Of a stretch of DNA of 64,000 nt, positions 6,785-47,162 are shown piece by piece. How positions within the stretch are numbered: the stretch's first letter is position 1; each line of letters starts with the position of its first letter. Below the pieces are notes generated by a model. That model did no database searches, had not been told where the DNA came from, and saw only the letters and a program-made list of their open reading frames with translations. Source of the stretch: an uncultured Pseudomonadota bacterium. GTDB taxonomy: Bacteria; Myxococcota_A; Polyangia; Fen-1088. A program made the position numbers and the translations under genes. The stretch lies in NCBI GenBank assembly GCA_963774325.1, contig CAVZEF010000002.1, forward strand, positions 108-64,107, given 5' to 3'.

Positions 6785-6812
6785 CGGAACGCTCGAGGTC
6801 AGAGGCCCGAAG

Positions 6813-12938: not shown

Positions 12939-12958
12939 CAGAGACAGACGAGGACGCC

Positions 12959-14352: not shown

Positions 14353-14396
14353 GCCGCCAACGACCCACCGAAAAGAAGGGGTAGGCAGGGAATCGC

Positions 14397-15068: not shown

Positions 15069-15078
15069 GGAAATCGCG

Positions 15079-20360: not shown

Positions 20361-20362
20361 CC

Positions 20363-20794: not shown

Positions 20795-20812
20795 CGATAT
20801 AGTGAGGGTGTC

Positions 20813-21535: not shown

Positions 21536-21548
21536 GGCGACCGCCGAC

Positions 21549-22814: not shown

Positions 22815-22876
22815 CCCGTATGCGCGCCGCCACCGCGGGTTTGACCCGAAAAAACCTATGCTAGTGTTTCTGGGCC

Positions 22877-24429: not shown

Positions 24430-24457
24430 GACGCCCGCTGTGCGACGCCCCGCCCGA

Positions 24458-25807
24458 TCAACGCGCGGCGAGGCGCGCGCTGACCAGGAACCCCGCGACC
24501 GGCACCTTCAGCTCTTGTCGCAGGATCACGCGGTCGATGAGCGGCTCGGCGAAGCCTGCCGCTGCGAGCCCGCCGCGTAGGTACGCCTCGGCGTGGCTGT
24601 AGCGGCCGTGCGGATTCAAACGGAAACCGCCAAGCGTGTCGTCGGTTGCCTGCTCGACGGTGAACACCAGGTGGCCGCCGGGGCGCAGCGCGCCGGCCGC
24701 CGCCAGCAGCACCTCTTCGAGCGGCCCGAAGTAGACCAGCGTGTCTGCCGAAACGCAGAGATCGAACCCGCGCGGGCGCGCGCGCATGAACGCGGTCAGC
24801 TCGCCCTCGCAGAGCTCGTCGTAGGTCGGGCGGTCGTCGATGCGGCGCTCGCGCGCCTTGCGCAGCATCTCGGGCGAGAGATCGACGCCGACCAGCGTGC
24901 GGGCGAACGGCCGCAGGTCGGCGCCGCACCAGCCGGTGCCGACGCCGGCGTCCAGCACCGCCAGCGCGCGCGCCGGCTCCCCAGCGAGCGTGCGGACCGC
25001 CTGCGCCACCAGCGCCGGCGCGCGGTAGTCGAGCCGCGTGAGGATCTGGTCGAAGCCGTCGGCGAACGTCTCGAACGTGCGGCGCACGAACTCGTCGGCG
25101 GCGCGCGACGGCGGCGCCTCGCCCGAGCACGACGCGATCATGTGGCGCGCCGAATCGCTGTGCGGCTCGACCTCGAGCCAGCGGCGATAGATCGCCAGCG
25201 CCTCGGGGACGCGGCCGTTGGCGTAGAGCAAGGCGCCCACGGCGCGGTAGGCCTCACCCTCGTAGGGGCGCAGCTCCAGCGCCTTGCTCGACACGTCCAG
25301 CGCCTCGTCGTCGCGGTCCAGGTCGCGCAAAACGTTGGCCAGGTTGTGGTACGCCTCCCCGTGGTCGGGCGCGAGCGCGATCGCCCGCCGCAGCGCCGAC
25401 TCGGCGCCGGCGAGATCGCGCCGCCGCCGCAGCACCGAGCCCAGGTTCGCGTGCGCGTTGACGTAGTCGGGCGCTCGTTCCAGCACCTGCCGAAACGCCG
25501 CCTCGGCCTCCTCGAAGCGCCCGCGCGACGACAGCATGTTGCCCAGGTTGTTGCGCACGTCGACGTTGTCGGGCGCCAGCTCCAGCGCGCGTCGCACCAG
25601 AGCCAGCCCCTCGTCGTGCTCTCCGCGGTGGTGCCGGCAGATGCCCAGGAAGTGGAGCGCGTCGACCTGATCGGGCACCGCCGCCAGCACGCGGCGGTAG
25701 ATCTCCTCGGCGGCGTCGAGGCGCCCGCGCTGCTGGATCGCCAGCGCGAGCTCGATCGCCTGCTCGACGGTCAGCTCGCGCGGCGCCTCCTCGAGGGGTT
25801 CAGTCAA
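24458..25807 (-). CDS. TPR-repeat protein fused to a class I SAM-dependent methyltransferase
   Basis: Intact 449-aa ORF with a TTG start in the ORF track. The first ~220 aa hold about six TPR units. The MTase motifs are VLDAGVGTGWCG, VGVDLSPEML and LRPGGHLVF. Its start overlaps the clpV stop (25800-25802) by 8 nt. Confidence 0.75.
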   Translation of the reverse strand: MTEPLEEAPRELTVEQAIELALAIQQRGRLDAAEEIYRRVLAAVPDQVDALHFLGICRHHRGEHDEGLALVRRALELAPDNVDVRNNLGNMLSSRGRFEEAEAAFRQVLERAPDYVNAHANLGSVLRRRRDLAGAESALRRAIALAPDHGEAYHNLANVLRDLDRDDEALDVSSKALELRPYEGEAYRAVGALLYANGRVPEALAIYRRWLEVEPHSDSARHMIASCSGEAPPSRAADEFVRRTFETFADGFDQILTRLDYRAPALVAQAVRTLAGEPARALAVLDAGVGTGWCGADLRPFARTLVGVDLSPEMLRKARERRIDDRPTYDELCEGELTAFMRARPRGFDLCVSADTLVYFGPLEEVLLAAAGALRPGGHLVFTVEQATDDTLGGFRLNPHGRYSHAEAYLRGGLAAAGFAEPLIDRVILRQELKVPVAGFLVSARLAAR

Positions 25808-28521: not shown

Positions 28522-28579
28522 TTGTCTCTCTCCCGTCCCAGCTAACGTTGATGACTGCGATGACTGCGTTGATGACCGC

Positions 28580-29602
28580 TCATGCAGCCGTCTGATGACC
28601 TTCCGACATCGGATCCAATATCAGATCCTCGCGTTTCCCGCGCTTGGGCTGCCTGCCCAGCCACGACGTCCAACCCAGCAGCGAGCGGCCGAGACGGCAC
28701 GGCTCCTCGGTCTGCTCGTCGAGGATGAGACGCACGTCCCACGCGTGCTCGTCGCCGGCGTAGTTGCGCACCAGCGACGTCAGCTTCTTGAGGCTGTCGT
28801 GGCCGGGCAACATGCGCGTGAACTGAGCGCGATTGAGCGGCCCCAGCACGACGCGGAACTTCTGCTGGCGGCTCCACACGCGCTGGCCGGCGATCGTCGA
28901 GCCGCCGAGCGCGCCGCCGCGCGTGCCACCGGCACCCAGCCGCCACTGGTGCCCGGGGGGATCAAGAGCCAGCTGCCCATGAACGGCTCGACGTGCGCCG
29001 GCATCTTGAAGAAGTCGCCGACCATCGCCGCCAGACCGTCGGCGTTGCGCGTCTGGCCGCTGAGGCGGCCGGCGTAGAACAGCTTCGCCGAGTCGGGGAA
29101 ATCGTCACGGTTGCGCGTCGACGCCGAGGCCCAGCCCCTCGAGCGCTCCGATGTAGAGCAGGAACCGATTGGTCGCCGGGTGGTCCTGGCCCACCGTCGG
29201 CTGCGCCGTCGACCAGGCGCGATAGAACAGCAGCATCAGACGGTGGTGGAACAGGTCGAAGAACCGACTCATCGTCGGATCCTCGGCGTGACGCTGGCGC
29301 TCGTTCGCGTACTCGGTGATGTGCAGCGGCATCGGGCCGTTGGGCCCGAGCAAGCCGAAGAAGTTGAGCGACAGCCGCGGCGGTGTGCCGTTCTTGCCGG
29401 CGGTCAGCCCGCCCAGGTTGCGCGGCGCGAAGACCAGCGACGGATCCTGGCCCAGGCGGATCGGCTCGTCGGCTGGACGCGCGCCCGCGCCGAACCGCGG
29501 GCGTTCGGGCCGATCGCAGTACAGGCTCTCCAGCCGCCGCATCACTTGATAGAAGTCGAACGCGTGAGGCGCCCGCGCGACCTGGTCGAAGATCGCGTTC
29601 AT
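28580..29602 (-). pseudogene. tssG: T6SS baseplate protein TssG, about three frame changes
   Basis: The N-terminal part is MNAIFDQVARAPHAFDFYQVMRRLE...RLGQDPSLVFAP...LNFFGLLGPNGPMPLHITEY (tail of ORF 29105..32032). It continues through MVGDFFKMPAHVEPFMGSW (ORF 28780..29025) and RVWSRQQKFRVVLGPL...AWDVRLIL (ORF 28580..28879). An alternative in-frame start at 29824 would add an Ala/Pro-rich extension. Confidence 0.85.
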
Positions 29603-29787
29603 CGCCGCCGACTTCTCGCGCGGCAGCGAAGCGCGCGCCGCCGCCGACAGCCCGGGCGCGGACGGAGCACTGGCGTTCGCGGGCGCACCCGCCGTGGGCG
29701 GAATGATCGGCCCCGACGCCGCGCTCGGCTGCGCGCCGCCGTTGCGCGCCGCCGCGGGGGCGGCGGCGGGCGGAGCGACGGCAGCCG

Positions 29788-31666
29788 CTAGATTGCCTGC
29801 CGGAGCCCCGTCCTCGCCTGCCATCGCATGATCTCCCCGCGCTGCACGGTGCGCAGCACGGTCTCGGTGAACGAATTGATCGAGACGTACTTCGCGAAGA
29901 AGCGCTCCAGCACCGCCCCCAGCAAGAAGACGCCGCTGCCCTCGAACGCCGACTCGTCGCAGGTGAGCGAGATCTCCAGGCCGCGGCCGAACGTCGTCGG
30001 CCCCGGCACCGGCAGCGCGCGCGTGATTCCCGACGAACCCGTCTCGCGCACGCCCTCGATCTGCTTGCGCGTGTTCGAATCGTTGAGGTCGCAGTAGAGC
30101 GACAGCAGCTCGCGCAGCGCTCCCGCCTTCTCGCCCGCGCCCGCGTTGGCGTCGACCAGCGACAGGTAGTTGAGCGACAGGTGGCTGATGAGCCGCCAGC
30201 TGGCGTCGGCGTCGGCGTACGACGCGCGCGGCGTCGTCGGTCCGGCCAGGCAACGCGCCGACTCGACCGGCGCGCCCGACTCCAGCGTGAAGTCGGTGTG
30301 CGCCTGGCCCACCGGCAGGTGCAGCGGCAGGTCGCGGTTGGTGCACAGGGTCTCGATCGCGAGCTGGCGCAGGCTCGAACGGTACGGCCCCTCGTTGGGA
30401 TCGACCAGCGCCATGAAGACCTCGCTGCCGACGTAGCTCGACCGCGTTCCACTCTGGCGCTGCCGCGCCGACAGCATGCGCGGCTGTCGCTGCAGCGTGT
30501 AGTACGCCGGCGCTTCCTCGACGGTGGTCTGGTCGTTCCAGGCGAAGAACGGGTGAAACGTCTGCTTCAGCTCCGAGCTCGAGCCGTAGCCGACGACCTC
30601 TTTCACCGTGTGGACCTCGAAGTCCATCGGCCGCGTGCGGTCGGGCACGATGTGATACTCGGTCTCCGCCTCGTTCAGGTGGATGCGGTCGGCGCGGCGC
30701 GGGAACAGGTTGATCGCGGGCGCGCAGAACATCGCGAAGTTCTCCGGGCTGACCGCGCCGTCGAGCCCGCGGTCGTGCGCGTCGGTGAGGAGCACGATCT
30801 CGATCTCGTTGGCGTTGCACCGGCGAACCGCGTCGGCCAGACCCTTGAGGCGCACGAAAAGGAAGCGCGACGGGAACGCGAAGTATTCCTGAAGCAGGCG
30901 GTAGCCCTGGAACGAGCGCGGGCCATAGGGCAGCAGCGCCTCTTCGTCGGCGAAGCCGACGCTCTCGATCGGGTTCTCGGTGACCACGTGCTGCCACGGC
31001 GCGGGCCGCGTCGTCGGGCGCGCCACGATCGCCACCGCGTGCGCCATGATCTGCTCGTAGATCTTCATCGGCAGCTCGTCGGCGCCGCGGATGAAGAGCG
31101 GCAGATCGTCGAGCGCCAGGTCCGAGAAATTGAGCCCCGCCGTGGTGCGCAGCTTGAACCGGATCGCGCCGCGCGCCCGCGCGGACAGCTTCACCTCGCC
31201 GATGTCGCCGACGTAGCCGGTGTACTCGGCGTGGGTCAGCTCCAGCGGCCACAGCGTCACGTCCTGCGACGTCCGGTACTCGCACGGCGTCTGCTCGCCG
31301 CGCCCGAGCAGGCTGCGCAGCGCCGTGCCGCGCGGCACCCGGTAGCCCTTGCGCCAGCGTGCCCTCGGCCAGGTTCGGCCGCATCTGCACCACCGCCATC
31401 GACGGCGTCGGCGCCAGGTAGTGCGGGTAGACGATCTCGAGCAGGTGCTGCGTGAAGCGCGGGAACTCCGAGTCGATGCGCAGGTGCACGCGCGCCGACA
31501 GAAAGGCGAACCCCTCGAGCAGGCGCTCGACGTAAGGGTCAGAGCACTCGAAGGTGTCGAGGCCGAGCCGACCCGCGATCTTGGGGAAGTCGCGCGCGAA
31601 CTCCGCGCCCAGCTCGCGCACGTACTGGAGCTCGCGACCGTAGTAGCGAAGAAGCCGAGGATCCAT
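29788..31666 (-). pseudogene. tssF: T6SS baseplate protein TssF, one frame change near 31340
   Basis: MDPRLLRYYGRELQYVRELGAEFARDFPKIAGRLG... is in the frame of ORF 29105..32032. The gene then continues in ORF 29788..31338. The span is 1879 nt (3n+1). The ATG overlaps the tssE stop by 1 nt (TAATG). Confidence 0.88.
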
Positions 31667-32178
31667 TAACCGCGCTGACCGTCGACTTCCGACACCTTCA
31701 CGCCGCCGTTCTCGAGATCGATCTCCGTTCGCAGGAACAGGCGCAGCGGCAACGGCTGCGCCCAAAGCTCGGCCTCGATGTCGAACCACATGGCGTTGGG
31801 ATCCATCTTCTTCTCGTCGACCACCAGCTTGACCTTGACCGAGCTCTTGATGAGCCGCGGCTCGAAGTCCCAGATCACATTGGACAGCAGCCGTTCCATG
31901 GCGCGCACGTCGACGCTGGAAGCGGTGTGGCCGGCCAGATCCGGCATGCCGTAGTTCAGCACCGAGCGGGCGACCTGCGGGTGGTCGTCGAGGTCCTCGA
32001 CGGCCGCCAGGTTGGTGGTGTTGAGCAGCCACGTCAGGTCACGCCGCACGCATTCGCGCAGCCGCGACGGCGAGATCACGTGCTTGTCGCGCGACTCGCG
32101 CCGCTCGGCCGGACTGTCGTCGGTCAGCCGATCCAGCAACGAAGGCTGTAACCGCTCCTTCTGGGTCAGCTCGGCCAT
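31666..32178 (-). CDS. tssE: T6SS baseplate protein TssE (gp25-like)
   Basis: ATG 32178 lies inside ORF 31666..32589. MAELTQKERLQPSLLDRLTDD...VRRDLTWLLNT...SVLNYGMPDL is typical of TssE. It is intact at 170 aa. Confidence 0.85.
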   Translation of the reverse strand: MAELTQKERLQPSLLDRLTDDSPAERRESRDKHVISPSRLRECVRRDLTWLLNTTNLAAVEDLDDHPQVARSVLNYGMPDLAGHTASSVDVRAMERLLSNVIWDFEPRLIKSSVKVKLVVDEKKMDPNAMWFDIEAELWAQPLPLRLFLRTEIDLENGGVKVSEVDGQRG

Positions 32179-32183
32179 GAAAC

Positions 32184-33014
32184 CTAGGCCTCGGGCGCGG
32201 GCTCGGCGGCGGGTTCCCCGTCGTTGGTCGAGTCGAGCCGGATCTGACGGACGTCCATCAGCGCATGCTCGGTCTCGTTGGTGGCCAGCAACCGCTGGCC
32301 GAGCCCGACGAACGTGCCCCCCGGCGTCTCGCTCCACTCGGTGCCTCGCGCCATCACCAGCGCCGGGTTCGACGACTTCTCCGATCCCGGATAGCGCGTC
32401 GGGATCAGGCCGACGGTCTCGCCGCCGTTGGCCAGCGTCAGGAACGCCGGCGTCCAGGCGACGTCGCGCAGGTCGGCCGGCTTTTCCATCCGCACCTCGC
32501 TCAGGCGCCCGAACGGAATCCAGTAGTAGCGACCGTTGACGATCGCCTCCAGCATCGGACCGATTCGCTGGTCGGCGTCGCTGATCCACTCGAACGGCTT
32601 GTCATCGATGGCGCCCGACGTCGTGGGCGCGCCTTCCAGCGCCTGCTCGCGCAGCTTCGCCGCCTCTTCGAATTTCTGTTCGCCGGACAGGCGCAACGCC
32701 TCGACCAGCAGCGCCATCCACTCCGCGGGCTTCCCGAAGAGCAGCGGCCGCTGCTTGCCCGCGAAGACCTCGGCGCGCAGCATCTCGCAGCGGAGAACTT
32801 CCTTGTAGGTCGCCATCATCGTGGCGGCGTTGGCATCCATGTCGCCAGCGACCTTGAGCTGGGTCAGCGCCCGGTCCCACTGTCCCATGACCGACAGGAG
32901 CTGGAACAAGAAGATCCGCAGCTTGGGATCCGCCGGCTGCTTGCGCACCTGCGCCTGAAGCTCCGCCAGAGCCTCATCGAGACGCCCCGCGCGCACGCTC
33001 TCTTCAGCGGTCAT
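32184..33014 (-). CDS. tagJ: T6SS accessory protein TagJ (ImpE family)
   Basis: Intact 276-aa ORF. It has an N-terminal TPR-like helical domain and an ImpE-like C-terminal domain (NGRYYWIPF...LSEV...P.DLRDVAW.PA). Confidence 0.75.
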   Translation of the reverse strand: MTAEESVRAGRLDEALAELQAQVRKQPADPKLRIFLFQLLSVMGQWDRALTQLKVAGDMDANAATMMATYKEVLRCEMLRAEVFAGKQRPLLFGKPAEWMALLVEALRLSGEQKFEEAAKLREQALEGAPTTSGAIDDKPFEWISDADQRIGPMLEAIVNGRYYWIPFGRLSEVRMEKPADLRDVAWTPAFLTLANGGETVGLIPTRYPGSEKSSNPALVMARGTEWSETPGGTFVGLGQRLLATNETEHALMDVRQIRLDSTNDGEPAAEPAPEA

Positions 33015-33119
33015 GGCACCCTTTCGTGACGATGGAAGTACCGCGTCCGCCCCGGCGGTCGGACGCGATACTCCTCGTGGCCTGGAGACTGGAGAGGTTC
33101 CCCCCTTCCCAGCGTCCTT

Positions 33120-33613
33120 TTACAGCTTCTTGCCGGCGACGATGTCCCAACCCGACTGGATCGTCGCGTCGGGCGTCCCGTCGGATTTCATCGGGGTGTA
33201 GGCCGTCTGCACCGCGCCGAAGTTCAGCGTGATCGTCTCGGTGTGCGTATCACTGCCGCCCGAGCCGCCGATGGAGTACGACGAAACCAGCACGTCCTTC
33301 AGAATGATCTTCAGGTACTGAACCGCCTTCTTGCCGTTGCCGGCCGACTTCTCGCAGATCAGCGTCGCAGTCGGATACGACGTGCCCGCGCAGCACGGCT
33401 CCGATGTGGTTCGGCGTCGCGGTGTCGACCAGCTTGGTGAAGGTCAGGTCCTGAACATTCACCTTGCCGGCGGTCGAGACCGCTGATGCCGCGGGTCGAG
33501 CCCGACTGAGTCGCGCCCCAGCTCCACGACATGAGCTCGATTTCGCCAGCGTGACCATCCACCTTCGATTCGCCCTTGATGTCGCCCAGTTTCAAAAACA
33601 TATCGCCGGACAT
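33120..33613 (-). pseudogene. hcp: T6SS tube protein Hcp (TssD), two +1 frame changes
   Basis: MSGDMFLKLGDIKGESKVDGHAGEIELMSWSWGATQSGS (ORF 33359..33613) is followed by TAGKVNVQDLTFTKLVDTATPN (ORF 33250..33558). A third frame then reads ...KAVQYLKIILKDVLVSSYSIGGSGGSDTHTETITLNFGAVQTAYTPM...GWDIVAGKKL*. The span is 494 nt, and 494 minus 2 equals 3 x 164. An AGGAG RBS lies 8 nt upstream of the ATG. Confidence 0.88.
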
Positions 33614-33746
33614 GAACGCTCTCCTTGTTTGATGTGACTGCCAGATCCCCAGCCCAATCCGAGGACGGTGCTGCTACTTTTCAGCTGCTTCGAAACAACC
33701 AGTCTGACGATGTCGTCGCGAATCCGACGCGAATCAGCCCGGCAAA

Positions 33747-35241
33747 TCAGCCGGCCTTGGCCGACGGCAGCTTCGAGGTGAGCCGCAGCGAGACGGTCAA
33801 CCCCTCGAGCTGGTAGTGCGGCCGCAGGAAGAACTTCGACGTGTAGTAGCCGGGGTTGCCCTCGACCTCTTCGACGACGACCTCGGCGCGCCGCGAGCGG
33901 CATGCGCGCCTTGGTCTCTTCGCTCGAGTGCTGCGGATCGCCGTCGACGTACTGCATGATCCAGGTCGAGCAGCCAGCTCTGCACCTCTTCGCGCTCCTT
34001 GAAGGATCCGATCTTGTCGCGAACGATGCACTTCAGGTAGTGCGCGAAGCGGCAGGTCGCGAACAGGTACGGCAGGCGCGCCGCCAGGTTCGCGTTCGCG
34101 GTCGCGTCCGGATCGTCGTAGACGCTCGGCTTCTGCAGCGACTGCGCGCCGATGAAGGCGGCGAAGTCGGAGTTCTTCTTGTGGATGAGCGGCATGAAGC
34201 CGTTCTTGGCCAGCTCCGCCTCGCGGCGATCGCTGATCGCGATCTCCGTCGGGCACTTCATGTCGACGCCGCCGTCGTCGGTCGGGAAGGCGTGCGTCGG
34301 CAGCCCCTCGACCGCGCCGCCGGCCTCGATGCCGCGGATGCGCGAGCACCAACCGTACATCTTGAACGACCGGTTGATGTTGGTCGCCATCGCGTAGGCG
34401 GCGTTGGCCCACGCGTACTTGTTGCTGTCGGCGCCCGCGGTGTCCTCCTCGAAGTCGAAGGCCTCGACCGGGTTGGTCTTCGCGCCGTAGGGCGCGCGCG
34501 CCAGGAAGCGCGGCATGGCCAGGCCGAGGTAGCGCGCGTCGTCCGACTCACGCAGCGATCGCCAGCCCGCGTACTCGGGCGTGGTGAAGATCTTGGTGAG
34601 ATCGCGCGGATTCGACAGCTCCTGCCACGACTCCATCTGCATCAGCGTCGGCGACGTGCCCGCGATGAACGGCGCGTGAATCGCCGCCGCGATCTTCGAC
34701 ATCTCACCGAGCAGCTCGACGTCGGGCGCGCTGTGATCGAAGTAGTAGTCGCCGACCAGGCAGCCGTAAGGCTCGCCGCCGAGCTGGCCGAACTCTTCCT
34801 CGTAGAGCCGCTTGAAGATCGGGCTCTGATCCCAGGCCGCGCCCTTGAACTTGCGCAGCGTCTTGTGCAGCTCCTTCTTCGAGATGTTCATCACGCGGAT
34901 CTTCAGCATCTCGTCGGTCTCGGTGTTGTTGACGAGATAGTGCAGGCCGCGCCACGCGCTCTCGAGCTGCTGGAAGTCCTTGTGGTGGATGATCGCGTTG
35001 ATCTGCTCGCTCATCTTCTTGTCGATCTGCGCGATCATCGCGTTGATCGACTCGACGACGTCCGAGCCGATGACGGTGGTCTTCTCCAGCGCCTGCTGCG
35101 CCATGGTCCGGACCGCCGCCTCGACCTCGTCGCGGGCGCGATCGGTCTGCGGCTTGAACTGCTTCGTTCAGCAGCGACGCGAACTCACTGGTTTCAGCGG
35201 TCGTCCGTCGCGGCTTCTTTGGTTTGCTGTGTCTCGGCCAT
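33747..35241 (-). pseudogene. tssC: T6SS sheath large subunit TssC, four +1 frame changes
   Basis: ATG 35241 sits 1 nt after the tssB stop. MAETQQTKEAATDD / AETSEFASLLN / KQFKPQTDRARDEVEAAVRTMAQQALEK... runs into ORF 33797..35104. It then continues as IMQYVDGDPQHSSEETKARMPLAA (ORF 33592..33957) and RRAEVVVEEVEGNPGYYTSKFFLRPHYQLEGLTVSLRL (ORF 33747..34412). The span is 1495 nt, and 1495 minus 4 equals 3 x 497. Confidence 0.9.
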
Positions 35242-35242
35242 G

Positions 35243-35776
35243 TTACTTGTCCTTATCGGCCGAGCCTTCGGCCGGTTGCGCGTCATCAGCCGGTTTCGGT
35301 GCCGAAGCCAAGGTCTTCAGCAATGTCGGGTCGCGCAGTACGTTTCCGATCAGCTCCTCGGCCCCGGTCTTACCGTCCATGTAGGTGACCAGGTTCGACA
35401 GCTGCTGACGCGCCTCGAGAAGCTCGCGAAGCGGAGCCACCTTTCGAGCGATCGCAGCCGGGGAGAAGTCATCCATGTTGTCAAACGTGATGTCGACGGA
35501 CATATTCCCCTGCCCGGTCAGCGTATTCGGCACCTGGAACGCGGCGCGCGGCTTGATGCCCTTCATGCGCTCGTCGAAGTTGTCGACCGAGATCTCGAGG
35601 AACTTACGGTCGGCCACGGCGGGCAGCGGCTCCTTCGGGTTGCCCGACAAATCCGACATGACCCCCATGACGAACGGGAGCTGCACCTTCTTCTGGGCGC
35701 CGTAGAGCTCGACGTCGTATTCGATCTGGACGCGTGGCGCCCGATTCCGTGCGATGAACTTTTGACTGCTGCCCAT
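35243..35776 (-). CDS. tssB: T6SS sheath small subunit TssB
   Basis: Intact 177-aa ORF. PRVQIEYDVELYGAQKKVQLPFVMGVMSDLSG...FLEISVDNFDERM is the canonical TssB/VipA pattern. An AGGAGAG RBS lies upstream. Confidence 0.92.
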   Translation of the reverse strand: MGSSQKFIARNRAPRVQIEYDVELYGAQKKVQLPFVMGVMSDLSGNPKEPLPAVADRKFLEISVDNFDERMKGIKPRAAFQVPNTLTGQGNMSVDITFDNMDDFSPAAIARKVAPLRELLEARQQLSNLVTYMDGKTGAEELIGNVLRDPTLLKTLASAPKPADDAQPAEGSADKDK

Positions 35777-35859
35777 GTGATCTCTCCTGTTGAGAAAAAC
35801 GCTGAAGCGCTACCTGAGTTCCCCTAGCCGCGCCACTTCCCCCCGCCTTCATGCTTGCG

Positions 35860-36897
35860 TCAACCTTCGCTTTGACCGCGCAGCATGTCGACCTTGGAGA
35901 GGCCTTCCGGCACCAGCTCCTTGATCAGGTCGACGAAGCTCATCATGACGAGCTTCTTGCTGCGCTCCATGAACATGGGAATCGGGCTCGATGGCTCGTT
36001 TCTGGCGTAATAGGCGCAGATGGCGTCGAGCGCCCGGATGACGTCCTCGCGCGAGCTGATGGCGCCGCCGAAGGCGCGCGCGGGCGCGGCGCCGTTGCTG
36101 CCGTTCTGCGCCACCGCTCCGTCGGCGGCGGGCGCGTCGGCGCTGGTGGCGGTGCGCTGCGCCAGCTTGCCGGCGACGTAGTTGTCGGCCCTGCGCAGCA
36201 GCGCCGGCAGCTTGCCGAAGCTCGCCGCTGCCGAAGCGTCGACGCGCGACGCGATCGCCTCCTCGAGCCCCTTCAGCGACTCGACGCAGGCGTGCAGTGC
36301 CTTGGCGGTCTCGTCGAGCCCGGCGAGGTCGACCTCCATCGCCGCGCCGTCGATCGTCGCCATCGTCGCCGGCGACGGCGCGCCGTCAGCGGCCGCGGGC
36401 GGGGGCACGTCGCCGCCGGCGATCTCGAGATCGCGCAGCGAAAAGCGACCGAGCGCACGCGACGAGATGATCGGAGTCGCGCGCACCGCGGCCAGCATCG
36501 GCGTATCCGAGAAGCTGGAGAAGACGTTCACGCGCATCGTCGGGTCGTTGTCGTCGGAGGGATCGAGGCGTGGGTGCACGCCGTCCCAGTAGCGTTCGAC
36601 GAGGCCGCGCAGCAGGCCGAGCCCCGTCGCCAGCCCCGACCAGCCGTTGTTGCGCAAGAGCGCGCGCGTCAGATGGCCCGCGACGCGCAAGTCCTTGCTA
36701 CGCGCGAGGAACTCGGTGGTCTTTTTCTGGAGAGTCTTCCAGTCCGGCTCCTCGGCGGGGACGATGGTGGTCCCGATCTGCTGCTCAGGTTTACCCTGGG
36801 ACAGCCGATCGATCTCCGAGAACGAAGCGTCGTACTCCAGATCGACCCCGCACTGGTCATCGGGGCTCACGGGGGCTAGTAGGGTTTCGAGATCCAT
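35860..36897 (-). CDS. tssA: T6SS protein TssA (ImpA N-terminal domain)
   Basis: Intact 345-aa ORF. LLAPVSPDDQCGVDLEYDASFSEI...EPDW is the ImpA_N signature. The C-terminal EPSSPIPMFMERSKKL is typical of short TssA proteins. Confidence 0.85.
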   Translation of the reverse strand: MDLETLLAPVSPDDQCGVDLEYDASFSEIDRLSQGKPEQQIGTTIVPAEEPDWKTLQKKTTEFLARSKDLRVAGHLTRALLRNNGWSGLATGLGLLRGLVERYWDGVHPRLDPSDDNDPTMRVNVFSSFSDTPMLAAVRATPIISSRALGRFSLRDLEIAGGDVPPPAAADGAPSPATMATIDGAAMEVDLAGLDETAKALHACVESLKGLEEAIASRVDASAAASFGKLPALLRRADNYVAGKLAQRTATSADAPAADGAVAQNGSNGAAPARAFGGAISSREDVIRALDAICAYYARNEPSSPIPMFMERSKKLVMMSFVDLIKELVPEGLSKVDMLRGQSEG

Positions 36898-37100: not shown

Positions 37101-38259
37101 ATGATTCTCGAGGTTCAGATAACCGACCCCAAGACCGGCTCGAGCCGGAAGATGCGTTTCTCCCACTCGCCGGTCCGCATCGGGCGCAACCAGCTGAACG
37201 ATCTGTCGCTCGACACGCCGTTCGTCTCGGAGTGGCACGGGACGATCCGCTTCGACAATCGCAGCGTCGCGTACTTCGACCTCGGCTCGACCAACGGGTC
37301 GAATGCTCGACGGGAAACGCCTGACCAAGAACGTCGCCGTGGAGCTGACGGAGGCGTCGCGCCTACAAGTGGGTGGCCTCGAGCTGTCGGTCTCGGTGCA
37401 ACAGGCGGACAGCGGGCTCGGCAAGACGCTGGGATGGGGCCGGCCCGACGATCGCCCCTCGCAACCGGCGCCGGCACCGGCGGTGATCCGCTCGCCCGAT
37501 CGTCCGAAGTCCGGTGGGCCGGGCTCGGCGTCGCCGTTCGCGAGCTATCACCCCGACGTCAGCAGCCCGGGGCTGCGGCCGTCGCCTGTCGGGGATGCCT
37601 CACGCGACGCCACCGCACGGGCCGGGCCCGTCGCCGGCGGGCCACGCGGGCGCGCGCGGATCGATGCATGGCCCCTCGCCGGGCGCCGGTCGCGTCGGCG
37701 CCCGGTGTCGGTCCATCGCCGGCGGCCTGCGCGCAGGCTCGGCCGACCTGGTCGCGCGCCAGCGCCAGCTGCTGGAGGCGTTCGCCGAGTCGTTCGTCGG
37801 CCTGCGCAAGGGCTACGAGCAGTTCGGCGCCGAGGTCGGCGTTCGCACGATCCACGGCAAGTCGGCGCTGCATCGGGCGCGCACCGCCGTCCGAGATCCT
37901 CGACTACCTGCTGCAGCCCAACCTGGATCCGGCGGCCGCGGCGCGCGAGCTCATCGCCGTGTTCGCCGACCTGGGCATCCACCACATCGCGATGATGGAG
38001 GCGATCACCGAGGGCGTGCGCTGCGGTGCTGCAGTCGCTCGATCCGCGCGCCAACGAGCTGGACATCGGCGCGGGCGGGATCCTGTCGCGCGGCAAGACC
38101 AAGGCGCAGTGGAAGAGTTACCTGGAGCGGTTCGATCAGCTGGTCACCGACGACGACGAGCTGCACACGGCGATCTTCAGCGACGACTTCGCGCGCGCCT
38201 ACGCCAGCGTCACGCTGGGCGAAGAGGGCGTGCGCCGGAAAAAAGAGGACAAGAAATGA
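37101..38259 (+). pseudogene. tagH: T6SS-associated FHA-domain protein (TagH/Fha-like), four +1 frame changes
   Basis: The N-terminal FHA domain reads MRFSHSPVRIGRNQLNDLSLDTPFVSEWHGTIRFDNRSVAYFDLGSTNGS / MLDGKRLTKNVAVELTEASRLQVGGLEL. A Pro-rich linker follows, then the C-terminal region LVARQRQLLEAFAESFVGLRKGYEQFG..., ILDYLLQPNLD...IAMMEAITEGV and MLQSLDP...WKSYLERFDQL. The frames run 37101, 37303, 37514, 37101, 38026. The span is 1159 nt, and 1159 minus 4 equals 3 x 385. Confidence 0.8.
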
Positions 38260-39228
38260 ACCTTGCCGCGCGCGCCGGCCGCGCCTCTGCGCGCAGGCCG
38301 GCCCTGGGGATCTGTCTCGCCGCCGCGCTCGCCGTCACCGGCGTCGTCCCGGGGTCGCGGATGCCAGCCGCGCGCGCGCCCGATGGTGGCGGGCCCGGCG
38401 CGCCCGTGCACGGTCGCCACGACCATCGGCGCCGACAAGCCGATGCGCGACCGCGTCTTCCCGTCGCAGTACTGGTTCGCGCTGCTGCTGCAGGGCTATC
38501 AGATGACCGGCGAGCTGGCGCGACCGGCGCTGAGCTGCAGCGGCACACCGATCAATCTCGAAGGCGACGGCTGCCCCGGTGAGACGTCGGCCGTGCGGGT
38601 CAACCCGGGCGCGATCGTTTCGAACCGCGACGTGACGGTGGTCAACATCACCGACTCGCGGCGGCTGGTGTGGGCAGTGACCGATCGCTACGCCGACGGC
38701 CAGGGCGAAGGCCCGGTCGCGCTCGTCGACATCGAGCCGCAGGGGCTGGCGGTGCGCGCGAGCGGCGTGCTGCGCGCCTATCCCGAGAACCCGTCGCTGC
38801 GACTCGCGCGCCTCGGGACCGGAACGGTGCTGGTGGCGGACGGCGAGTACTGCTCGAAGCCGGCGTCCTGCGAGCGCGCGACGCGCATCATGCCGCTGGT
38901 CGGCGACCACTTCGTCAACAAGCCGCTGGTCGACGACAAGGCCGCGTGCCTGGGCCCGGCGTTTTTCCCGATGCACCAGGCCGGCGTCGCCCACGGGCGC
39001 AAGCGCGCGAAGTACGACATCTCGGTGTCGATCACCTACGGCCCCGACAACATCTCGGTCCGCGAGCAGCTGGGGCTGAGCGGCGCGGAGCCGGCATCAG
39101 ACACGGGAACGGGATCCTTCGTGACGCGCGTGCAGTCGGAGCGGCAGGTGACGTTGAAGGACGGGAGCCTGGTGGCGACGGCGCCGTCGATCCTGGCGCG
39201 CTGGCTGGCGCAGCAGCAGCAGCTCTAG
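38256..39228 (+). pseudogene. hypothetical exported Cys-containing protein translationally coupled to tagH; one frame change near 38405
   Basis: ATG 38256 overlaps the tagH stop (ATGA). A signal-like N-terminus (RRPALGICLAAALAVTGVVPG) is in the frame of ORF 37101. The rest is in ORF 38263..39228 (...YWFALLLQGYQMTGELARPALSCSG...CPGE...). The span is 973 nt (3n+1). No family recognised. Confidence 0.5.
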
Positions 39229-41160
39229 TTCCTCTGGCGGGCGACTCGGCGGCCGTCGTGCGGCCTCGGCCGGAGCTGGGCTCGCTCGACAGGTTGCCGG
39301 CGCTCGCCGACTTGAAGATGAAGAGGCCGTCGCCGATGCCGATGGTCTCGCCGTCGGTGAGCGGGCAGCGCTTGTCGACCGCGGAGCCCTCGACGGTGAC
39401 CGGACCGCCGAGCGGCGCGATCGCGAACTCGCCGCCGTCGAGCGTGATCTCGGCGTGCTCGGCGGCGACGGTGTGATCCTGCGACAGGCGGATCTGAGCA
39501 ACTCCCCGACGAGACCGATGACCGTGCGCTGCGTCGCCGAGCCGCAGCGTCTCGCCGCGCCGGCCGGCGCCGCCCGCGCGCACCAGCCAGCCGACGACGA
39601 TGCCCAGCGCGCCGACGCGCGTGCGCAGCGTGTCCTGGATCGCGACCACGGCGCCGCGCGCGCGCGGCGTGCCCAGCGCCGGGTGCGACGACGCGGCGGC
39701 GCGCAGCGCCTCGGCCAGGCGATCCAGGCCCAGGCTGGTGAACGCGGTGCACTCGTCGGCGCCCACGCGCGCCGCCACCGTGGCCGCCGCCTGATCCGGC
39801 GGCGTGCGGTTGCTGACCGCATCGGCCAGCACCGCCGCCAGCGCGTCGTCGAGCATCGGGCTGTCGACGGACTTCTTCGCGAGCAGGTCGCGGATCTCCT
39901 GCATGCGCAGCCGGCCGGGGCGCGTGCGGAAGTACGGGAAGCGCGGATCGGAGAAGACCTCCTGATCCAGGTTCGCGAGCTCGCCGATCGACTCCGGGAT
40001 AGTTGCGCGTCAGCTCGTCGACCGCTCGCCGGGGCGAGGCGCCGCGCCGGATGAGATCGTGCGCCGCCTGCAGGATCTCGTCGTCGCCGCCGCCGCCGCT
40101 CGCCGGTCGCCGGCGCATGAAGACGATCACCCGCCGGCCAGCAGCGCCAGCACGCCGACGCCGCCGAGCAGCAGCGAGCGCAGCTTGCCGGGGCCGATCG
40201 AGACCGCGCCCATGTCGGCGCCGAGCCGCTGCCCGCCACCGACGTTGAGCCGTGACGGACAGGTGGTGCGAGCCGCCCAGCAGGTGCCAGCCGAACGGCG
40301 TCGCCACGCGGACACGCAGCAGGTCGGCGATGCCCTGCCCCAGCGACTCGAGCGCGTTCTCGAGATCCTGCGGCTGGTCGAGCATGCGCAGCACGCCGCC
40401 CGCGGCGTCGTGGAAGTCGCTGAGGTTCGACGTCGCCTGCGCGCGATCGGCGTCGGGCGCCGGGAACGCCACCACCAGCGGCGTGACCCCCGCCTTGCGG
40501 ATCTCGCGCCCGAGCGCCGCGAAGTCGCCCGGCCCCTCCCCCTTGGGATCGGCGAAGTCGCGCCCGTCGGTGACCACGACCAGGATGCGCAACGGCGCCG
40601 GGTCGGCCGCCAGGTCGGCGAGATCCAGCCGCACCGCTTCGATCAGGTTGGGGCGGTTGCCGTCGATGTACGGCACGTCGCCGAGGCGGCTGACGTCGGC
40701 GGCGGTCAGGCGCGCGCGGCCCTGGCGCATGCGCCCGTAGACGGTCGGGATAGACCACGGTCCGCGAGGGCACGCGCTGGAAGAACGCCTGGATACCGTC
40801 GAGCACGCCGGGCGGGATGTGCTCGATCCAGAGGTAGACCAGGCCGACCGACACCGGCGGCTTCCAGGTCTTGTTGCCCTCGGCGGCCGTCGTCGACCAG
40901 TCGGACAGCGACTGGGTCACCGGCGGCGCGTCCGACTTCTGCCCGTCGATGGTCAGCTCCAGGCTGGTCGGCTTCAGCGAACGGCCGGCGTCGTTGAAGC
41001 CGCCCACGAAGAACGTCAGCTCGTCGGTCTCGGCGTCCACGACCGGCCGCGTGGTGATCAGCGCCGGCCCGACGGCCGCCGCCGTGCCCGGCAACATCGG
41101 GAGCACGAGCGCGAGCGCCGTGGCGATCGCAGCGGGGGTTCGCCGTCGGCTGATGGTCAT
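39225..41160 (-). pseudogene. signal peptide - vWA-like periplasmic domain - TM - cytoplasmic FHA domain protein; many frame changes; 3' end uncertain
   Basis: The parts are a signal peptide (MTISRRRTPAAIATALALVLPMLPGTAAA) and a vWA-like half (LRILVVVTDGRDFADPKGEG...GVTPLVVAFP). A TM helix LLLGGVGVLALLAGGVIVFM is followed by RRR. A C-terminal FHA domain follows (AEHAEITLDGGEFAIAPLGGPVTVEGSAVDKRCPLTDGETIGIGDGLFIFKSA). I could not see a MIDAS DxSxS motif. ATG 41160 overlaps the upstream stop (ATGA). Confidence 0.65.
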
Positions 41161-41946
41161 GGGGTTCGAACGCCGACCGGAGGAAGCCACAGCGACTTGA
41201 ACAGCAGCTCGGTGGTCCCGACCTTGATGATGTCACCGTCGGCCAGCCGGACGATCTCGCCCTTGACCAGCTTGTGCGAGTTGACGAAGGTGCCGTTCGC
41301 CGACGGCCCGGGCCGATCGCGGTCGCGGATCGTGAACGCATCGGTGCGCTCGCCGGTCATGCGGGCGGCTCAGCACGGCGTGCCCGCTCGACATGAAGCC
41401 GTCGTCGAAGGCGACCAGCTTGGCGGAGCCGATCGGCGGCGCGTCGGCGCGCGACAGCACGGCGTCGGCGTCGAGCTCGACGAGCGTCCCCTTCTTCGAC
41501 TCGTCGCCGGTGCGAATGACGATCAGCCAGCCCAGCGTCATGCCGCGCCGCCGCGTGCGATGCCGGCAGCTCGACCTGCCCGGGCGCGAAGAACATGGTC
41601 TTGGCGCCGACCAGGTTGGGCCGGCACTTGCCGCAGGTGGTGCCCCAGCCGGCCAGCATCGGCTCGCCGCAGTTGGGGCACGGGATCTCCGCGGGCGCCG
41701 ATTCCTCCGGCGGCTCCAGCGGCTCGAAGGCCCCGCTTGGCCCGCGCGAGCGTGCGCCGGCTCCCGTCCCGAGCCCGGGGTCGGACAGCGGGCTGCGCGG
41801 GCGCGCCGGCCTCCGCGGGGGCCCGCCCGACGAGACGCTGGCCCGCGGCGACCGCGCGGCGGCGTCGGCGACTCCGGCTGCTGGGGCGGCTGATTGCCGA
41901 GAAGATTTTTCAGCTTATCGAACACGCGGTTAGCGATGGTCATCAT
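41157..41946 (-). pseudogene. zinc-ribbon plus FHA domain protein, three frame changes
   Basis: The N-terminus MMTIANRVFDKLKNLLG is followed by a Pro/Arg-rich linker. The zinc ribbon is EIPCPNCGEPMLAGWGTTCGKCRPN (CxxC...CxxC). The FHA domain reads LGWLIVIRTGDESKKGTLVELD...SSGHAVLS...IRDRDRPGPSANGTFVNSHKL...LADGDIIKVGTTELLFK. Frame changes lie near 41800, 41560 and 41365. Confidence 0.7.
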
Positions 41947-44245: not shown

Positions 44246-45413
44246 GTGGTCACGCGGCTCTGGATAGGGGTGTGTTCGCGAGCGCGCTGGGCGTTGCTGG
44301 CACTGGTTGCGGGCTGCTTTTCGAGCGCCCCGACCACCACCCTGTCGGCCAACAGCGACCCATACGGACTCTGTCCTCCGATCGATGCCGGCATGACCGG
44401 GAGCGGTGCCGGCAACGGCGAGACGCCGCCTTCCTGCGATGCGCCACCGCCGGCAAGCCCGCTCTCCGGCTGGGCCACCGTGTCCGGCATGGGCAACGGC
44501 ACGGTGTCGGTCGATACGACGACCGGCGGCGACCCCGCGGTGCCGATCAGCGTGACCACGCTGGCCGACCTCAACACCGCGCTCGCGGGCACGACGCCGG
44601 CGGTCGTGCAGATCGTCGGCATGACGATCAGCGGCAACGTGCGCGTCGGCTCGAACAAGACGCTGGTCGGCGTCTGCGGCGGCGTGGTTCAGGGCAACAT
44701 CAAGATCTCGGGCTCGTACAACGTCATCGTCCGCAACCTCAAGATCGTCGGCTACAACTGCAAGGATCCCGCCGCGGTCAACGCCAAGGACTGCTCGGCG
44801 GGCGCCGACGCGGTCACGATCAGCAACTCGCACCACGTCTGGTTCGATCACGACGACATCTCCGACGGCTCCGACGGCAACCTGGACATCAACCTGGCCT
44901 CCGACTTCATCACGCTGTCGTGGACCAAGTTCTATTACTCCGGGTCGCGCGTCGACCCGGCGGGCGCCGCCGGCGGACACGAGTTCTCGGACCTGATCGG
45001 CAGCTCCGACAACTCGACGACGGATGCGGGCCACCTGCGCGTGACCTGGCACCACGACTGGTGGGGCGCCAACGTGCACGAGCGCGAGCCGCGCGTGCGG
45101 TTCGGCGAGATTCACCTCTACAACAACCTGTGGACGTCGGTCAGCAACTCGTACTGCGTCGGCCTCGGCGTCGGCGCGAGCATCCTGGCCGAGAACAACG
45201 TCTTCCGCGGCGTGAACATTCCGTTCAACATCACCTCCTACGCCGACACCACCAGCGTGCTCGAGCCGCGCGCCAACCTGCTTCGAGGGGGTCACCGGCA
45301 ACACGGACGGCGTCGGCGGCGCGGCCTTCACGCCGCCCTACGACTACACCGTCGAAGAACCCTGCACCGCCGTCGCCGAGATCCTCACGCAGGCGGGACC
45401 GCAGTACGCGGGC
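44246..45413 (+). pseudogene. pectate lyase (PL1 family) lipoprotein; frame change near 45280; true stop not identifiable
   Basis: The lipobox is LALVAGC. PL1 motifs are HVWFDHDDISDGSDGNLDI, LRVTWHHDWW and REPRVRFGEIHLYNN (ORF 44246..45652). The natural C-terminus FEGVTGNTDGVGGAAFTPPYDYTVEEPCTAVAEILTQAGPQY reads in the third frame from 45282, which has no nearby stop. The end coordinate is approximate. Confidence 0.75.
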
Positions 45414-47162
45414 TCAGAATCCGCCTTGCGGATCGACGTGCGGCGCGGGGTCGGCGTCGGCGAGACCGCCCGCATCTTTCTCGTCGCGGATCTGCGTCAC
45501 CAGGCGGCGCAGCTGCTCCTGGTACATCGCCACCGCCGGCGCGAGCGCGACCGCGCGCTCCCAGTAGAGCACGGCGTCCAGCGGACGGCGCTCCGAGACC
45601 AGCGACAGGCCGCGATCGAAGCAGGCGGCGGCGACCGCCTCGTCCTCGCTGAGGTTGTGCGTCGGCGGCGACTGCGGCAGCGCCGATTCGGGCGGCGCGC
45701 CGCGCACCCACGCGGCGACCGGATTGACGCCCGCGCGGCGCACGACCGAGAACGGATCCGACAGCGCCGCCGGCGTAGGCACCCGCGTACCAGGCGCGGG
45801 CACCCGCGTACCAGGCGTGGGCAACCGCGCCGCAGGCGTCGGCAACCGCGCCGCAGGCGTCGGCAACCGCGCCGCAGGCGTGGGGATGAACGGCGGGCGG
45901 GGCGGGGCCGCGGCGACCGGCGGCTGCGCGGTCGGGCCGCCGGGAACGCGCGGCACAACCGGGGGCGTCGCCTGCTGCTGCAGCACCGAGAGGTCGTCGA
46001 GGCTGATCGCCGGCTTCACCGCCGTGGGCGTCGGACGCGGCGTGCGGCGGGCGGCGGCGCGCGCATCAACCTGCGGGTCCGCCGGCGGCGCGAGCACCGG
46101 GGGCGCCGCCGGTCGCGCAACCGCGGGTGCTGCGACCGAGGGCAAAATGCGCAGGCGCGCCGCCTGTCCCTCGGGCGTAGCCGGCATCTCGTGCACCGCC
46201 GCGCCCGCCTTGCGCAGGTGCTCGAGCACGTCGCCCTCGTCGGCGGCGTAGGGGTCGTTGCCGAGGTCGCTGGCCAGGAGTTGTAGAAGCTCGTCGGCCA
46301 GCCGATCCGCCCACCCGTAACGCTTGCGCAGGTCGGCGGCCATCGCGCGCCGCACGACGCGCGCGACCGACATCGGCACGTTGACCTTGGTGGTGATGTC
46401 GGGCGCCTGGCCGTCGATGATCTTCTTCACCATGTCCTGGCCGTCGAACGGGCTGATGCCGGCCAGGTACTCGTAGAGCATGATGCCGACCGAGTAGAGA
46501 TCGCTCCGCGCGTCGCCGACGTTTCCGCGCAACCGCTCGGGGCTCAGGTAGCGCAGCTTGCCGACCACCGAGCTCGACGGCGGCGGCGTGTTCGTGGTCG
46601 CCGCCGCGCCGAAGTCGATCAGCTTGGTCGCGCCCGCGTACGAGATCATGACGTTCTCGGGGCTGACGTCGCGATGGACGAATCCGACCGGTACGCCGTT
46701 TTCAGTCAGCGCGTGACCGTATGACAGCGCACGAACGACATCGAGCATGGCGCGCAGGAAAAAATTTCGCGGCAGCCGGCGCTGTTTGAGACGAAACGAT
46801 CGCCCGAGCTGGCGCAACGACCGCCCCGGCACGTACTCCATCGCGATGAAGTAGCGCCCCTCGTACTGGCCGAAATCGAAGACCTGGACCATGCCAGGAT
46901 GGTTCATGCGCGCGGCGATCTCCGCCTCGTTGATGAACATGCGCACCAGATCCGGCGTGTCGGCGAGCTCGGGCCTCATCGTCTTGATGACGATGTCCTT
47001 CTGAAAGCTCTCGACGCCGAGAACGCGGGCGCGCCAGACCTCCGCCATACCACCGGCGGACAGTCGGCCGAGTATCTCGTACCGACTGAAGTGCGATCCA
47101 GCTTTCCAAGCAAAGTGCCCGAGTGGCATCCGTCCCCCTGGTGGACGCTCTCCGCGATCCAA
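45414..47162 (-). CDS. Ser/Thr protein kinase with a Pro-rich repeat linker and a TPR-like C-terminus
   Basis: Intact 582-aa ORF. The kinase motifs are LSAGGMAEVWRA, IVIKTM, HRDVSPENV, DFGAA and LRYLSPE. The linker has PTPAARL x3 and PxPGTRV x2 repeats. The C-terminus (VLYWERAVALAP) looks TPR-like. Confidence 0.8.
   Translation of the reverse strand: MDRGERPPGGRMPLGHFAWKAGSHFSRYEILGRLSAGGMAEVWRARVLGVESFQKDIVIKTMRPELADTPDLVRMFINEAEIAARMNHPGMVQVFDFGQYEGRYFIAMEYVPGRSLRQLGRSFRLKQRRLPRNFFLRAMLDVVRALSYGHALTENGVPVGFVHRDVSPENVMISYAGATKLIDFGAAATTNTPPPSSSVVGKLRYLSPERLRGNVGDARSDLYSVGIMLYEYLAGISPFDGQDMVKKIIDGQAPDITTKVNVPMSVARVVRRAMAADLRKRYGWADRLADELLQLLASDLGNDPYAADEGDVLEHLRKAGAAVHEMPATPEGQAARLRILPSVAAPAVARPAAPPVLAPPADPQVDARAAARRTPRPTPTAVKPAISLDDLSVLQQQATPPVVPRVPGGPTAQPPVAAAPPRPPFIPTPAARLPTPAARLPTPAARLPTPGTRVPAPGTRVPTPAALSDPFSVVRRAGVNPVAAWVRGAPPESALPQSPPTHNLSEDEAVAAACFDRGLSLVSERRPLDAVLYWERAVALAPAVAMYQEQLRRLVTQIRDEKDAGGLADADPAPHVDPQGGF
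45778..45882 (-). repeat. five tandem 21-bp coding repeats within the kinase linker
   Basis: The + strand units are ggcacccgcgtaccaggcg(cg/tg) at 45778 and 45799, and ggcaaccgcgccgcaggcgt(c/c/g) at 45820, 45841 and 45862. They are in frame (7 aa each). Confidence 0.85.

Follow-up and report, generated by a model that had tools for sequence, protein, structure and literature searches.

The 64,000-nucleotide stretch of contig CAVZEF010000002.1 analysed here (hereafter the window; approximately 70% G+C), from an uncultured myxobacterium of the class Polyangia, carries a complete gene set for a type VI secretion system (T6SS) of the T6SS-i type, as judged from a Pfam analysis of every coding segment supported by third-codon-position G+C content (GC3). 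An initial annotation of the sequence described three genes for forkhead-associated (FHA) domain proteins at positions 37101-41946, and PF00498 matches all three in the frameshift-stitched translations that were used for Pfam domain calls on the FHA genes of the window. One of them encodes TagH. The other two, on the opposite strand, encode a zinc-ribbon FHA protein (ZnR-FHA) and a large bitopic membrane protein, and lie divergent from a gene for a peptidoglycan amidase; this trio is referred to below as the module. Genes were read from GC3 frame plots and three-frame displays, with clean orthologues serving as tblastn queries, and their context was surveyed in five neighbourhoods with gene calls and in 37 genome loci (tblastn and Pfam; individual loci carry L numbers). 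The domain architectures and gene orders described below come directly from these sequences.

The zinc-ribbon FHA gene, its partners and their conservation

The ZnR-FHA gene (41946-41157, reverse strand) encodes an FHA domain (Pfam E 3e-9) preceded, as first described, by a CxxC-N12-CxxC zinc ribbon (CPNCGEPMLAGWGTTCGKC, at 41680-41624 on the reverse strand). The motifs CPxCGxPML.GWG..CG.CRP, VLSR, FMSxGHA and PSxNGTFVN are present in 35/35 recovered orthologues, a count that is partly built in for the ribbon because recovery demanded a CxxC...CxxC match. The same 35 proteins all retain the FHA residues that contact phosphothreonine (pThr). The family comprises 259 proteins, none with a functional name, and its distribution is restricted like that of the large protein to uncultured Polyangia/Myxococcales metagenome-assembled genomes (MAGs). 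The FHA region alone gave no sequence match in the PDB at E <= 0.01.

The stop codon of the ZnR-FHA gene overlaps the ATG of the large-protein gene by 4 bp (ATGA at 41160-41157), an arrangement that predicts the translational coupling ascribed to this opposite-strand pair in the initial annotation. Upstream lies a sigma-70-type promoter-like sequence, TTGACC-17-TATGAT (41970-41942, reverse strand), with 10/12 consensus matches; it is the sole such site in 5.5 kb, and of 25 aligned loci at least 80% keep its GTTTGACC and TATGATGA. It is the predicted promoter of the operon formed by the ZnR-FHA gene and the gene for the large protein, which has a von Willebrand factor A (vWA) fold, a transmembrane (TM) helix and an FHA domain. 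The ATGATG read as the ZnR-FHA start shares bases with the -10 box, and in most relatives this ATG is out of frame. The start that is conserved is a GTG, the first codon of 'VFDKLK', at 41925 in the window and 21 nt downstream of the presumed ATG. From this conservation the true start is likely to be the GTG at 41925, not the ATG at 41946, and the transcript would therefore have a very short leader.

The amidase gene (42107 to approximately 44170, forward strand) is divergent from this operon and encodes an Amidase_2 domain (Pfam E 1e-19) and a Peptidase_M23 domain (E 2e-9) behind a single N-terminal TM segment, identified by hydropathy, that would act as a membrane anchor. The Amidase_2 part has zinc-site-like motifs (LHFDG, AFHAEEAN and GHLHVD..KWDPG). 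The M23 part is non-canonical (WHSGVH, EIHFE) and resembles regulatory LytM domains, and the C-terminal 200 or so amino acids are conserved and match no family. The best 120 listed family members are 60-93% identical to the orthologue in L005, and in the same loci the amidase is more similar than the large protein (61% versus 43% identity). Its family shows the same restricted distribution and has no functional name. We considered that the amidase might be a T6SS effector. This is less likely given its fixed position, its 60-93% conservation, its N-terminal anchor and the fact that VgrG/PAAR genes are unlinked in most loci; the protein is unlike a variable effector because it is better conserved than the FHA proteins and is membrane-anchored.

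The ZnR-FHA gene was found in 35 of the 37 loci examined, one of the two exceptions being a very short contig. The order amidase (reverse strand), ZnR-FHA (forward), large protein (forward) is kept in every ZnR-FHA locus with enough flank, and the amidase gene is present in all those with enough upstream flank. T6SS core genes lie within 10 kb in approximately 33 loci, in two different arrangements. In the closer relatives the module is followed by a lipoprotein gene and tagH (both reverse strand) and then by tssA, tssB and tssC, and in the divergent loci L028, L029, L034 and L038 it stands directly after tssJ-K-L-M-tagF. The module is mid-cluster in L012 and L041, and in the latter it is inserted between tssEFG and tagH-tssJKLM. 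Since ZnR-FHA recurs in 35/37 loci, the amidase is co-conserved and T6SS core genes are nearby in so many loci, the ZnR-FHA and large-protein pair is not a chance neighbour, and the association with T6SS seen in the initial annotation extends to the whole trio and to both arrangements.

This gene order also bears on the idea that the trio is a cell-envelope or peptidoglycan homeostasis module that merely sits beside the T6SS, akin to the control of wall enzymes by serine/threonine protein kinases and FHA proteins in actinobacteria. No single T6SS neighbour is as strictly conserved as the amidase-FHA trio, two loci (L035 and L037) have no T6SS context, and cytoplasmic vWA-kinase-FHA-PP2C operons are reported outside T6SS (10.64898/2026.01.23.701218). 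Set against this, the trio has T6SS genes on its flanks in about 33 loci, arranged in two independent ways that include the insertion in L041, and the large-protein family was found only in genomes of this clade. We consider such a role most improbable.

All carriers are uncultured Polyangia/Myxococcales MAGs. The module proteins have no specific model in NCBIfam or Pfam and are named 'hypothetical' or 'FHA domain-containing protein' in the databases. Table 1 of PMC13584744 has no entry for a Zn-ribbon-FHA, vWA-TM-FHA or Amidase_2/M23 protein, and literature searches on T6SS or Myxococcota turned up nothing specific on this architecture, in keeping with the view of the initial annotation that it had not been named. 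That the locus is a conserved, unnamed T6SS accessory module is well supported.

The third FHA gene (37101-38259, forward strand) matches FHA (Pfam E 2.9e-12) and T6SS_FHA_C (PF20232, E 5e-11), and these two domains identify it as a tagH orthologue. TagH keeps the canonical FHA residues GR, SxxH and STNG, as read from the sequence. Its orthologue in L004 (12895-14160) aligns to positions 17-417 of the 420 in TIGR03354 with an E of 1.5e-28, which is below the curated cut-off. The matches of ZnR-FHA and the large protein to the same model are confined to the FHA part at 17-18 bits, and neither is of the TagH type. The gene after tagH (approximately 38263-39228, forward strand; start uncertain) encodes a lipoprotein of some 315-330 amino acids that is 92% identical to its orthologue in L005, where the lipobox is AAAGC. 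It overlaps the tagH stop codon in relatives and is co-operonic with tagH, following it in many loci, not all. It has no match in Pfam or NCBIfam and may be another unnamed T6SS accessory gene.

Architecture of the large bitopic protein

The large-protein gene (41160-39225, reverse strand) encodes approximately 640 amino acids, and tblastn with two orthologues, P0001 and that of L005, covers residues 1-642 in three frames. P0001 is a clean orthologue, 90% identical to the window copy, and was modelled in its place. The family has 168 proteins of roughly 620-670 amino acids, the best 120 of which are 51-93% identical. Among 1.84 billion cluster representatives there were about 60 matches at E <= 1e-30, roughly 20 of them full length; beyond those, only FHA-domain proteins were found among the matches listed.

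Hydropathy analysis of P0001 revealed a signal-like segment at residues 12-30 and one strong TM segment at residues 329-347 (Kyte-Doolittle peak 2.95), which is followed by RRR. The AlphaFold model (mean pLDDT 83) comprises the signal peptide, a beta-sandwich (residues 33-84), an alpha/beta domain with a vWA fold (85-285), a beta-hairpin (296-321), a TM helix (325-349), a helical domain (359-518) and an FHA domain (521-620). In window coordinates, all approximate and on the reverse strand, the region from the beta-sandwich to the beta-hairpin corresponds to 40195-41070, the TM helix and RRR to 40116-40190 (spanning a frame change), the helical domain to 39610-40085 and the FHA domain to 39300-39600. 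Since a signal-like segment is combined with a single strong TM segment and RRR, the N-terminal 300 or so residues are predicted to be periplasmic and the rest cytoplasmic. Hydropathy, the model and Foldseek thus bear out the topology first described, with a signal peptide, a periplasmic vWA-like domain, one TM helix followed by RRR and a cytoplasmic FHA domain.

Profile searches gave a mixed answer on the vWA domain. The stitched window copy has no Pfam vWA match, and of 22 divergent members 2 match PF00092, with E 6e-5 at best. In a profile search against PDB sequences, integrin I-domains appeared at sub-threshold E values of about 0.2-0.6, and the alignment with integrin alpha-M (E 0.2, also sub-threshold) spans TDG...beta5...beta6. 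Structure comparison was clearer. The periplasmic part was modelled alone with a pLDDT of 86 and a pTM of 0.87, and all of the 50 Foldseek PDB matches listed for this isolated model are vWA or integrin I-domains (E about 1e-6, probability 1.0, target TM-score 0.55-0.69); with the full-length model, Foldseek returned FHA matches only. As all listed matches are to vWA or I-domains and two divergent members match PF00092, the assignment of a vWA fold to the modelled domain is sound.

Family conservation shows no metal ion-dependent adhesion site (MIDAS) motif, DxSxS...T...D, in this vWA domain. After beta1, DxSxS is replaced by VYLWxxGxP, with invariant W111 and P116 and no Asp or Ser, and only the Asp of TDG in beta4 is kept. 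The cytoplasmic helical domain of about 160 amino acids, defined from the model and conservation, has no sequence match in Pfam or the PDB. It contains a near-invariant [FL]R[TS]RxGR motif (P0001 residues 411-417; approximately 39930-39910 in the window, reverse strand), a candidate phospho-acceptor or interaction site. The initial annotation had mentioned neither the helical domain, nor the absence of MIDAS, nor the amidase.

The C-terminal domain of the large protein is an FHA domain by fold. PF00498 matches with an E of 1.2e-3 in the window copy and 2e-5 in P0001, and Foldseek superimposes the domain on the FHA domains of GarA and Rv0020c with an rmsd of 1.2-1.9 A. However, HMMER alignments with GarA and Rv0020c show that GR is changed to GL and SRRH to AAEH, and that the S-x-N loop is two residues shorter. 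Across the family the pThr-contacting Arg is found in 8/53 members, the Ser in 1/53 and the Asn in 0/53, the loop being shortened in all 53. The Pfam model for the cytoplasmic domain of the type III secretion system (T3SS) protein YscD (Yop-YscD_cpl) matches 17/22 members, as does FHA. Because the phosphate-contacting Arg, Ser and Asn have been lost across the family, the domain is classed from its sequence as a pseudo-FHA that would not bind pThr in the canonical manner. If pThr is read at this locus, the readers would be the canonical FHA domains of ZnR-FHA and TagH.

These residue counts do not support the proposal of the initial annotation that a periplasmic vWA signal is read out by pThr binding of the attached FHA domain. 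Such a protein would amount to a 'split PpkA', in which the periplasmic vWA domain senses and the FHA domain of the same chain binds pThr on the TM kinase or a substrate. The idea draws on the presence of a periplasmic vWA fold and a cytoplasmic FHA fold on a single chain, on locus kinases that carry no vWA domain, and on Pseudomonas PpkA, which itself bears the periplasmic domain (PMC13584744). However, the attached FHA domain is without the phosphate-binding Arg, Ser and Asn loop in most or all members, the YscD-type model matches about as many of them as FHA does, and no MIDAS motif is present in the vWA domain to bind a ligand. We regard this explanation as improbable.

Kinases, frameshifts and other genes of the window

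Two Hanks-type kinases are encoded in the window, and neither combines a kinase domain with a periplasmic vWA domain. Kinase 1 (approximately 10590-12192, reverse strand; Pfam Pkinase E 5e-40) is divergent from tssJ and has a TM stretch and an extracytoplasmic tail of about 125 amino acids with no vWA domain. The initial annotation was right about the TM helix and the missing vWA domain of this protein; its description of the kinase as adjacent and of the tail as short was inexact, the gene adjoining tssJ some 27 kb from the FHA genes. It is 66% identical in the best aligned segment to the kinase of L003 (42-71% across segments). Related kinases of L003, L004, L011 and L012 are encoded upstream of the amidase, the L004 copy with a PEGA domain. 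Kinase 2, which had been missed (47129-45419, reverse strand; Pfam Pkinase E 2e-30), has no TM segment by hydropathy and is soluble. Its gene lies about 3.5 kb from the FHA pair, is syntenic in L001, L005 and L015, and encodes a protein 81% identical to that of L005 (2558-4180). Its catalytic loop reads HRDVSPEN in place of the usual HRDLKPEN, and its C-terminal tail is helical (TPR-like). At least 11 loci have a Ser/Thr kinase gene near the module.

The initial annotation saw no PP2C phosphatase in the window, and Pfam likewise finds no PP2C, PP2C_2 or SpoIIE domain in the 64-kb window or in the precomputed Pfam lists of seven related loci. A tblastn search of 44 loci with an approximate PstP sequence as query, a weak test, gave no match. 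The C-terminus of TagF was considered as a hidden PP2C domain, by analogy with the TagF-PppA fusion of Agrobacterium; Pfam gives TagF_N only. No ABC-transporter or other TagQRST-like Pfam match occurs within the T6SS cluster. In L005, a gene absent from the window (5434-6825, reverse strand) lies between those for the pectate lyase and the amidase and encodes an FHA, sigma-54 activator and helix-turn-helix protein, a fourth FHA protein and a possible transcriptional regulator of the module.

The pseudo-FHA also raises the possibility that the large protein is a structural scaffold of the T6SS membrane complex that recruits the amidase so that the cell wall is opened, in the manner of the T3SS pseudo-FHA proteins YscD and PrgH or of GltG from the gliding machine, and with no phospho-signalling in its own function. 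Its pseudo-FHA with Yop-YscD_cpl matches, the strict coupling to the amidase, the position next to tssJKLM in one subgroup and the precedent of GltG are all in line with this. On the other side, its gene is always co-transcribed with that for ZnR-FHA, whose FHA domain keeps every pThr-binding residue, kinases recur beside the module, and TagH and TagF are present. A purely structural role is, in our judgement, rather unlikely.

All three FHA genes and most T6SS genes of the window contain uncompensated frame changes. Each FHA gene required approximately 3-5 frame corrections (TagH about 4, the large protein about 5 and ZnR-FHA about 3), and ClpV alone about 9. The T6SS island could thus be decaying, with real frameshifts and pseudogenes in this genome. 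In support of this, the changes are dense between approximately 10.5 and 47 kb, while open reading frames (ORFs) of 523-738 amino acids remain intact in the flanking sugar-utilisation region (49-60 kb), and in a DNA comparison with L005 and L015 only 4 of 62 single-base indels lay inside homopolymers; gap placement at 88% identity is ambiguous, so that this comparison does not choose between error and decay. Against it, genes are also split in the related long-read MAG contigs L015, L042 and L043 (89-92% identical to the window), and they are intact in close relatives assembled from short reads (L005). Moreover, translated window segments are 80-97% identical to intact orthologues, and no in-frame stops were noticed, a point that was not checked systematically. 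Since the ORFs of relatives are intact and other long-read contigs are also split, the frameshifts are probably long-read assembly noise, which is the simplest reading, and we hold decay of the island to be improbable.

The remaining T6SS genes, assigned by Pfam, fall into two blocks. Those for TssJ, TssK, TssL, TssM and TagF occupy 12351-19568 on the forward strand and are followed by genes unrelated to T6SS on mixed strands (19650-25819). On the reverse strand, ClpV is encoded at 26003-28014, and TssG, TssF, TssE, ImpE/TagJ, Hcp, TssC, TssB and TssA at 28268-36876. Beyond the amidase are genes for a pectate lyase (44474-45647, forward strand) and kinase 2, and sugar-utilisation genes on mixed strands begin at approximately 47479. 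Upstream of the T6SS region, at 2244-6018 on the reverse strand, are genes for a Peptidase_C14 (caspase-like) protein, a long protein of short GAQL-type repeats and a DUF2325 protein.

A proposed role and comparison with known systems

The module probably helps to control where or when the T6SS is built. More specifically, it may serve a T6SS-i-type system as an accessory module that is specific to this clade of uncultured Polyangia and in which a transmembrane adaptor links a periplasmic event to a cytoplasmic pThr relay, a proposal to which we give about an even chance. It would have three components: a membrane-anchored periplasmic peptidoglycan amidase with Amidase_2 and non-canonical M23/LytM domains; a cytoplasmic zinc-ribbon protein with a canonical, pThr-competent FHA domain; and a bitopic inner-membrane adaptor, with its beta-sandwich and MIDAS-less vWA domain on one side and its helical and pseudo-FHA domains on the other. 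The adaptor would couple a periplasmic event to the cytoplasmic face of T6SS assembly, the likeliest event being that the partner amidase remodels the wall locally or that the adaptor touches the membrane complex or lipoprotein of the T6SS, and its helical and pseudo-FHA domains could serve as a docking platform. The Hanks kinases encoded at the locus would write pThr marks and ZnR-FHA and TagH would read them, and this reading would trigger or position T6SS assembly. TagF would provide repression, and any dephosphorylation would come from a phosphatase encoded elsewhere.

There is precedent for parts of this scheme. Dedicated cell-wall enzymes are required for T6SS in other bacteria, for example MltE and TagX (PMC13584744), and FHA and zinc-ribbon cytoplasmic domains are borne by GltG and GltJ, bitopic proteins of myxobacterial envelope machines (PMC11761067). 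A more tentative version, possible but on balance doubtful, is that the adaptor couples the dedicated amidase to the ZnR-FHA/TagH relay such that wall opening and the choice of firing site are licensed together, without a PpkA-type kinase or PppA.

Several points weigh against an adaptor-relay module. No T6SS context is seen in 8.5 kb downstream in L037, and L035 contains an orphan paralogue of the vWA-TM-pseudo-FHA protein (approximately 10000-11830, forward strand) without T6SS genes. The conserved Thr of the [FL]R[TS]RxGR motif, T413, falls within a helix that is folded with confidence in the model, a setting atypical of an FHA ligand. The amidase might instead be a neighbour with a role of its own, or an effector that is conserved, and with the window genes frameshifted the system might be in decay in this genome. 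Finally, the carriers are all uncultured, and we infer the interactions and the direction of signalling from architecture, gene order and precedent. As a separate observation, the L035 paralogue adjoins a trehalose synthase-like gene, without ZnR-FHA or amidase genes, and the same MAG holds a full module (L028).

Almost all that is known of T6SS regulation and accessory genes comes from Pseudomonadota, and the catalogue of T6SS accessory genes is, by the review's own statement, skewed to model organisms (PMC13584744). To these the module contributes three accessory genes, conserved and unnamed, of predatory-type bacteria that form a large clade in soil and sediment. It offers an example from nature of a vWA sensor domain separated from the kinase, and a clear case of an FHA domain without a pThr pocket whose operon partner keeps the pocket. 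It also points to a link, open to testing, between hydrolysis of the cell wall and T6SS assembly that is phospho-dependent. Profile models for the three families could improve T6SS annotation in Myxococcota MAGs beyond 'hypothetical' or 'FHA domain protein'.

Among known systems, the TagQRST-PpkA/TagE-Fha1/TagH-PppA/TagG pathway of Pseudomonas, with TagF, likewise combines Hanks kinase(s), a canonical-FHA TagH and TagF with a T6SS, and has a periplasmic vWA-type domain. Here, in contrast, the vWA domain belongs to a distinct membrane protein that is not a kinase, and the set includes an additional zinc-ribbon FHA reader and a dedicated amidase, with no PP2C in 64 kb and no TagQRST-like Pfam match in the cluster. 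The inner-ring proteins YscD, PrgH and MxiG of T3SS, and GltG and GltJ, are also bitopic inner-membrane proteins of trans-envelope machines with cytoplasmic FHA-like or zinc-ribbon docking domains. The FHA-like domains of the T3SS inner ring are not known to keep the pThr-binding residues. The domain order of the large protein is inverted relative to these proteins, with the periplasmic part N-terminal and the FHA domain C-terminal, and a vWA fold, with no evidence of ring formation, stands in place of their ring-building motifs or TonB-C-like domain.

The ArnA and ArnB proteins of Sulfolobus, which are phosphorylated by ArnC, likewise pair a zinc-binding FHA protein with a neighbouring vWA and beta-sandwich protein in a kinase-dependent system (PMC12852372). 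ArnB, however, resides in the cytoplasm and uses its vWA-side domains to bind ArnA in the regulation of the archaellum (PMC12852372), and no sequence homology was detected between the two pairs beyond the domain folds. In the module, the predicted topology places the vWA domain and beta-sandwich in the periplasm, and they would therefore be unable to contact the cytoplasmic zinc ribbon, unlike their counterparts in ArnA/ArnB. Like MltE, which is recruited by TssM, and the L,D-endopeptidase TagX, the amidase is a peptidoglycan hydrolase with genetic links to a T6SS cluster; it is of a different class, an Amidase_2 and M23-like fusion, and coupling to two FHA proteins is not reported for MltE or TagX. 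Each part of the module is of a known kind (FHA, vWA, zinc ribbon, amidase, Hanks kinase, TagH and TagF), and it is the arrangement that is new, not a categorically new system.

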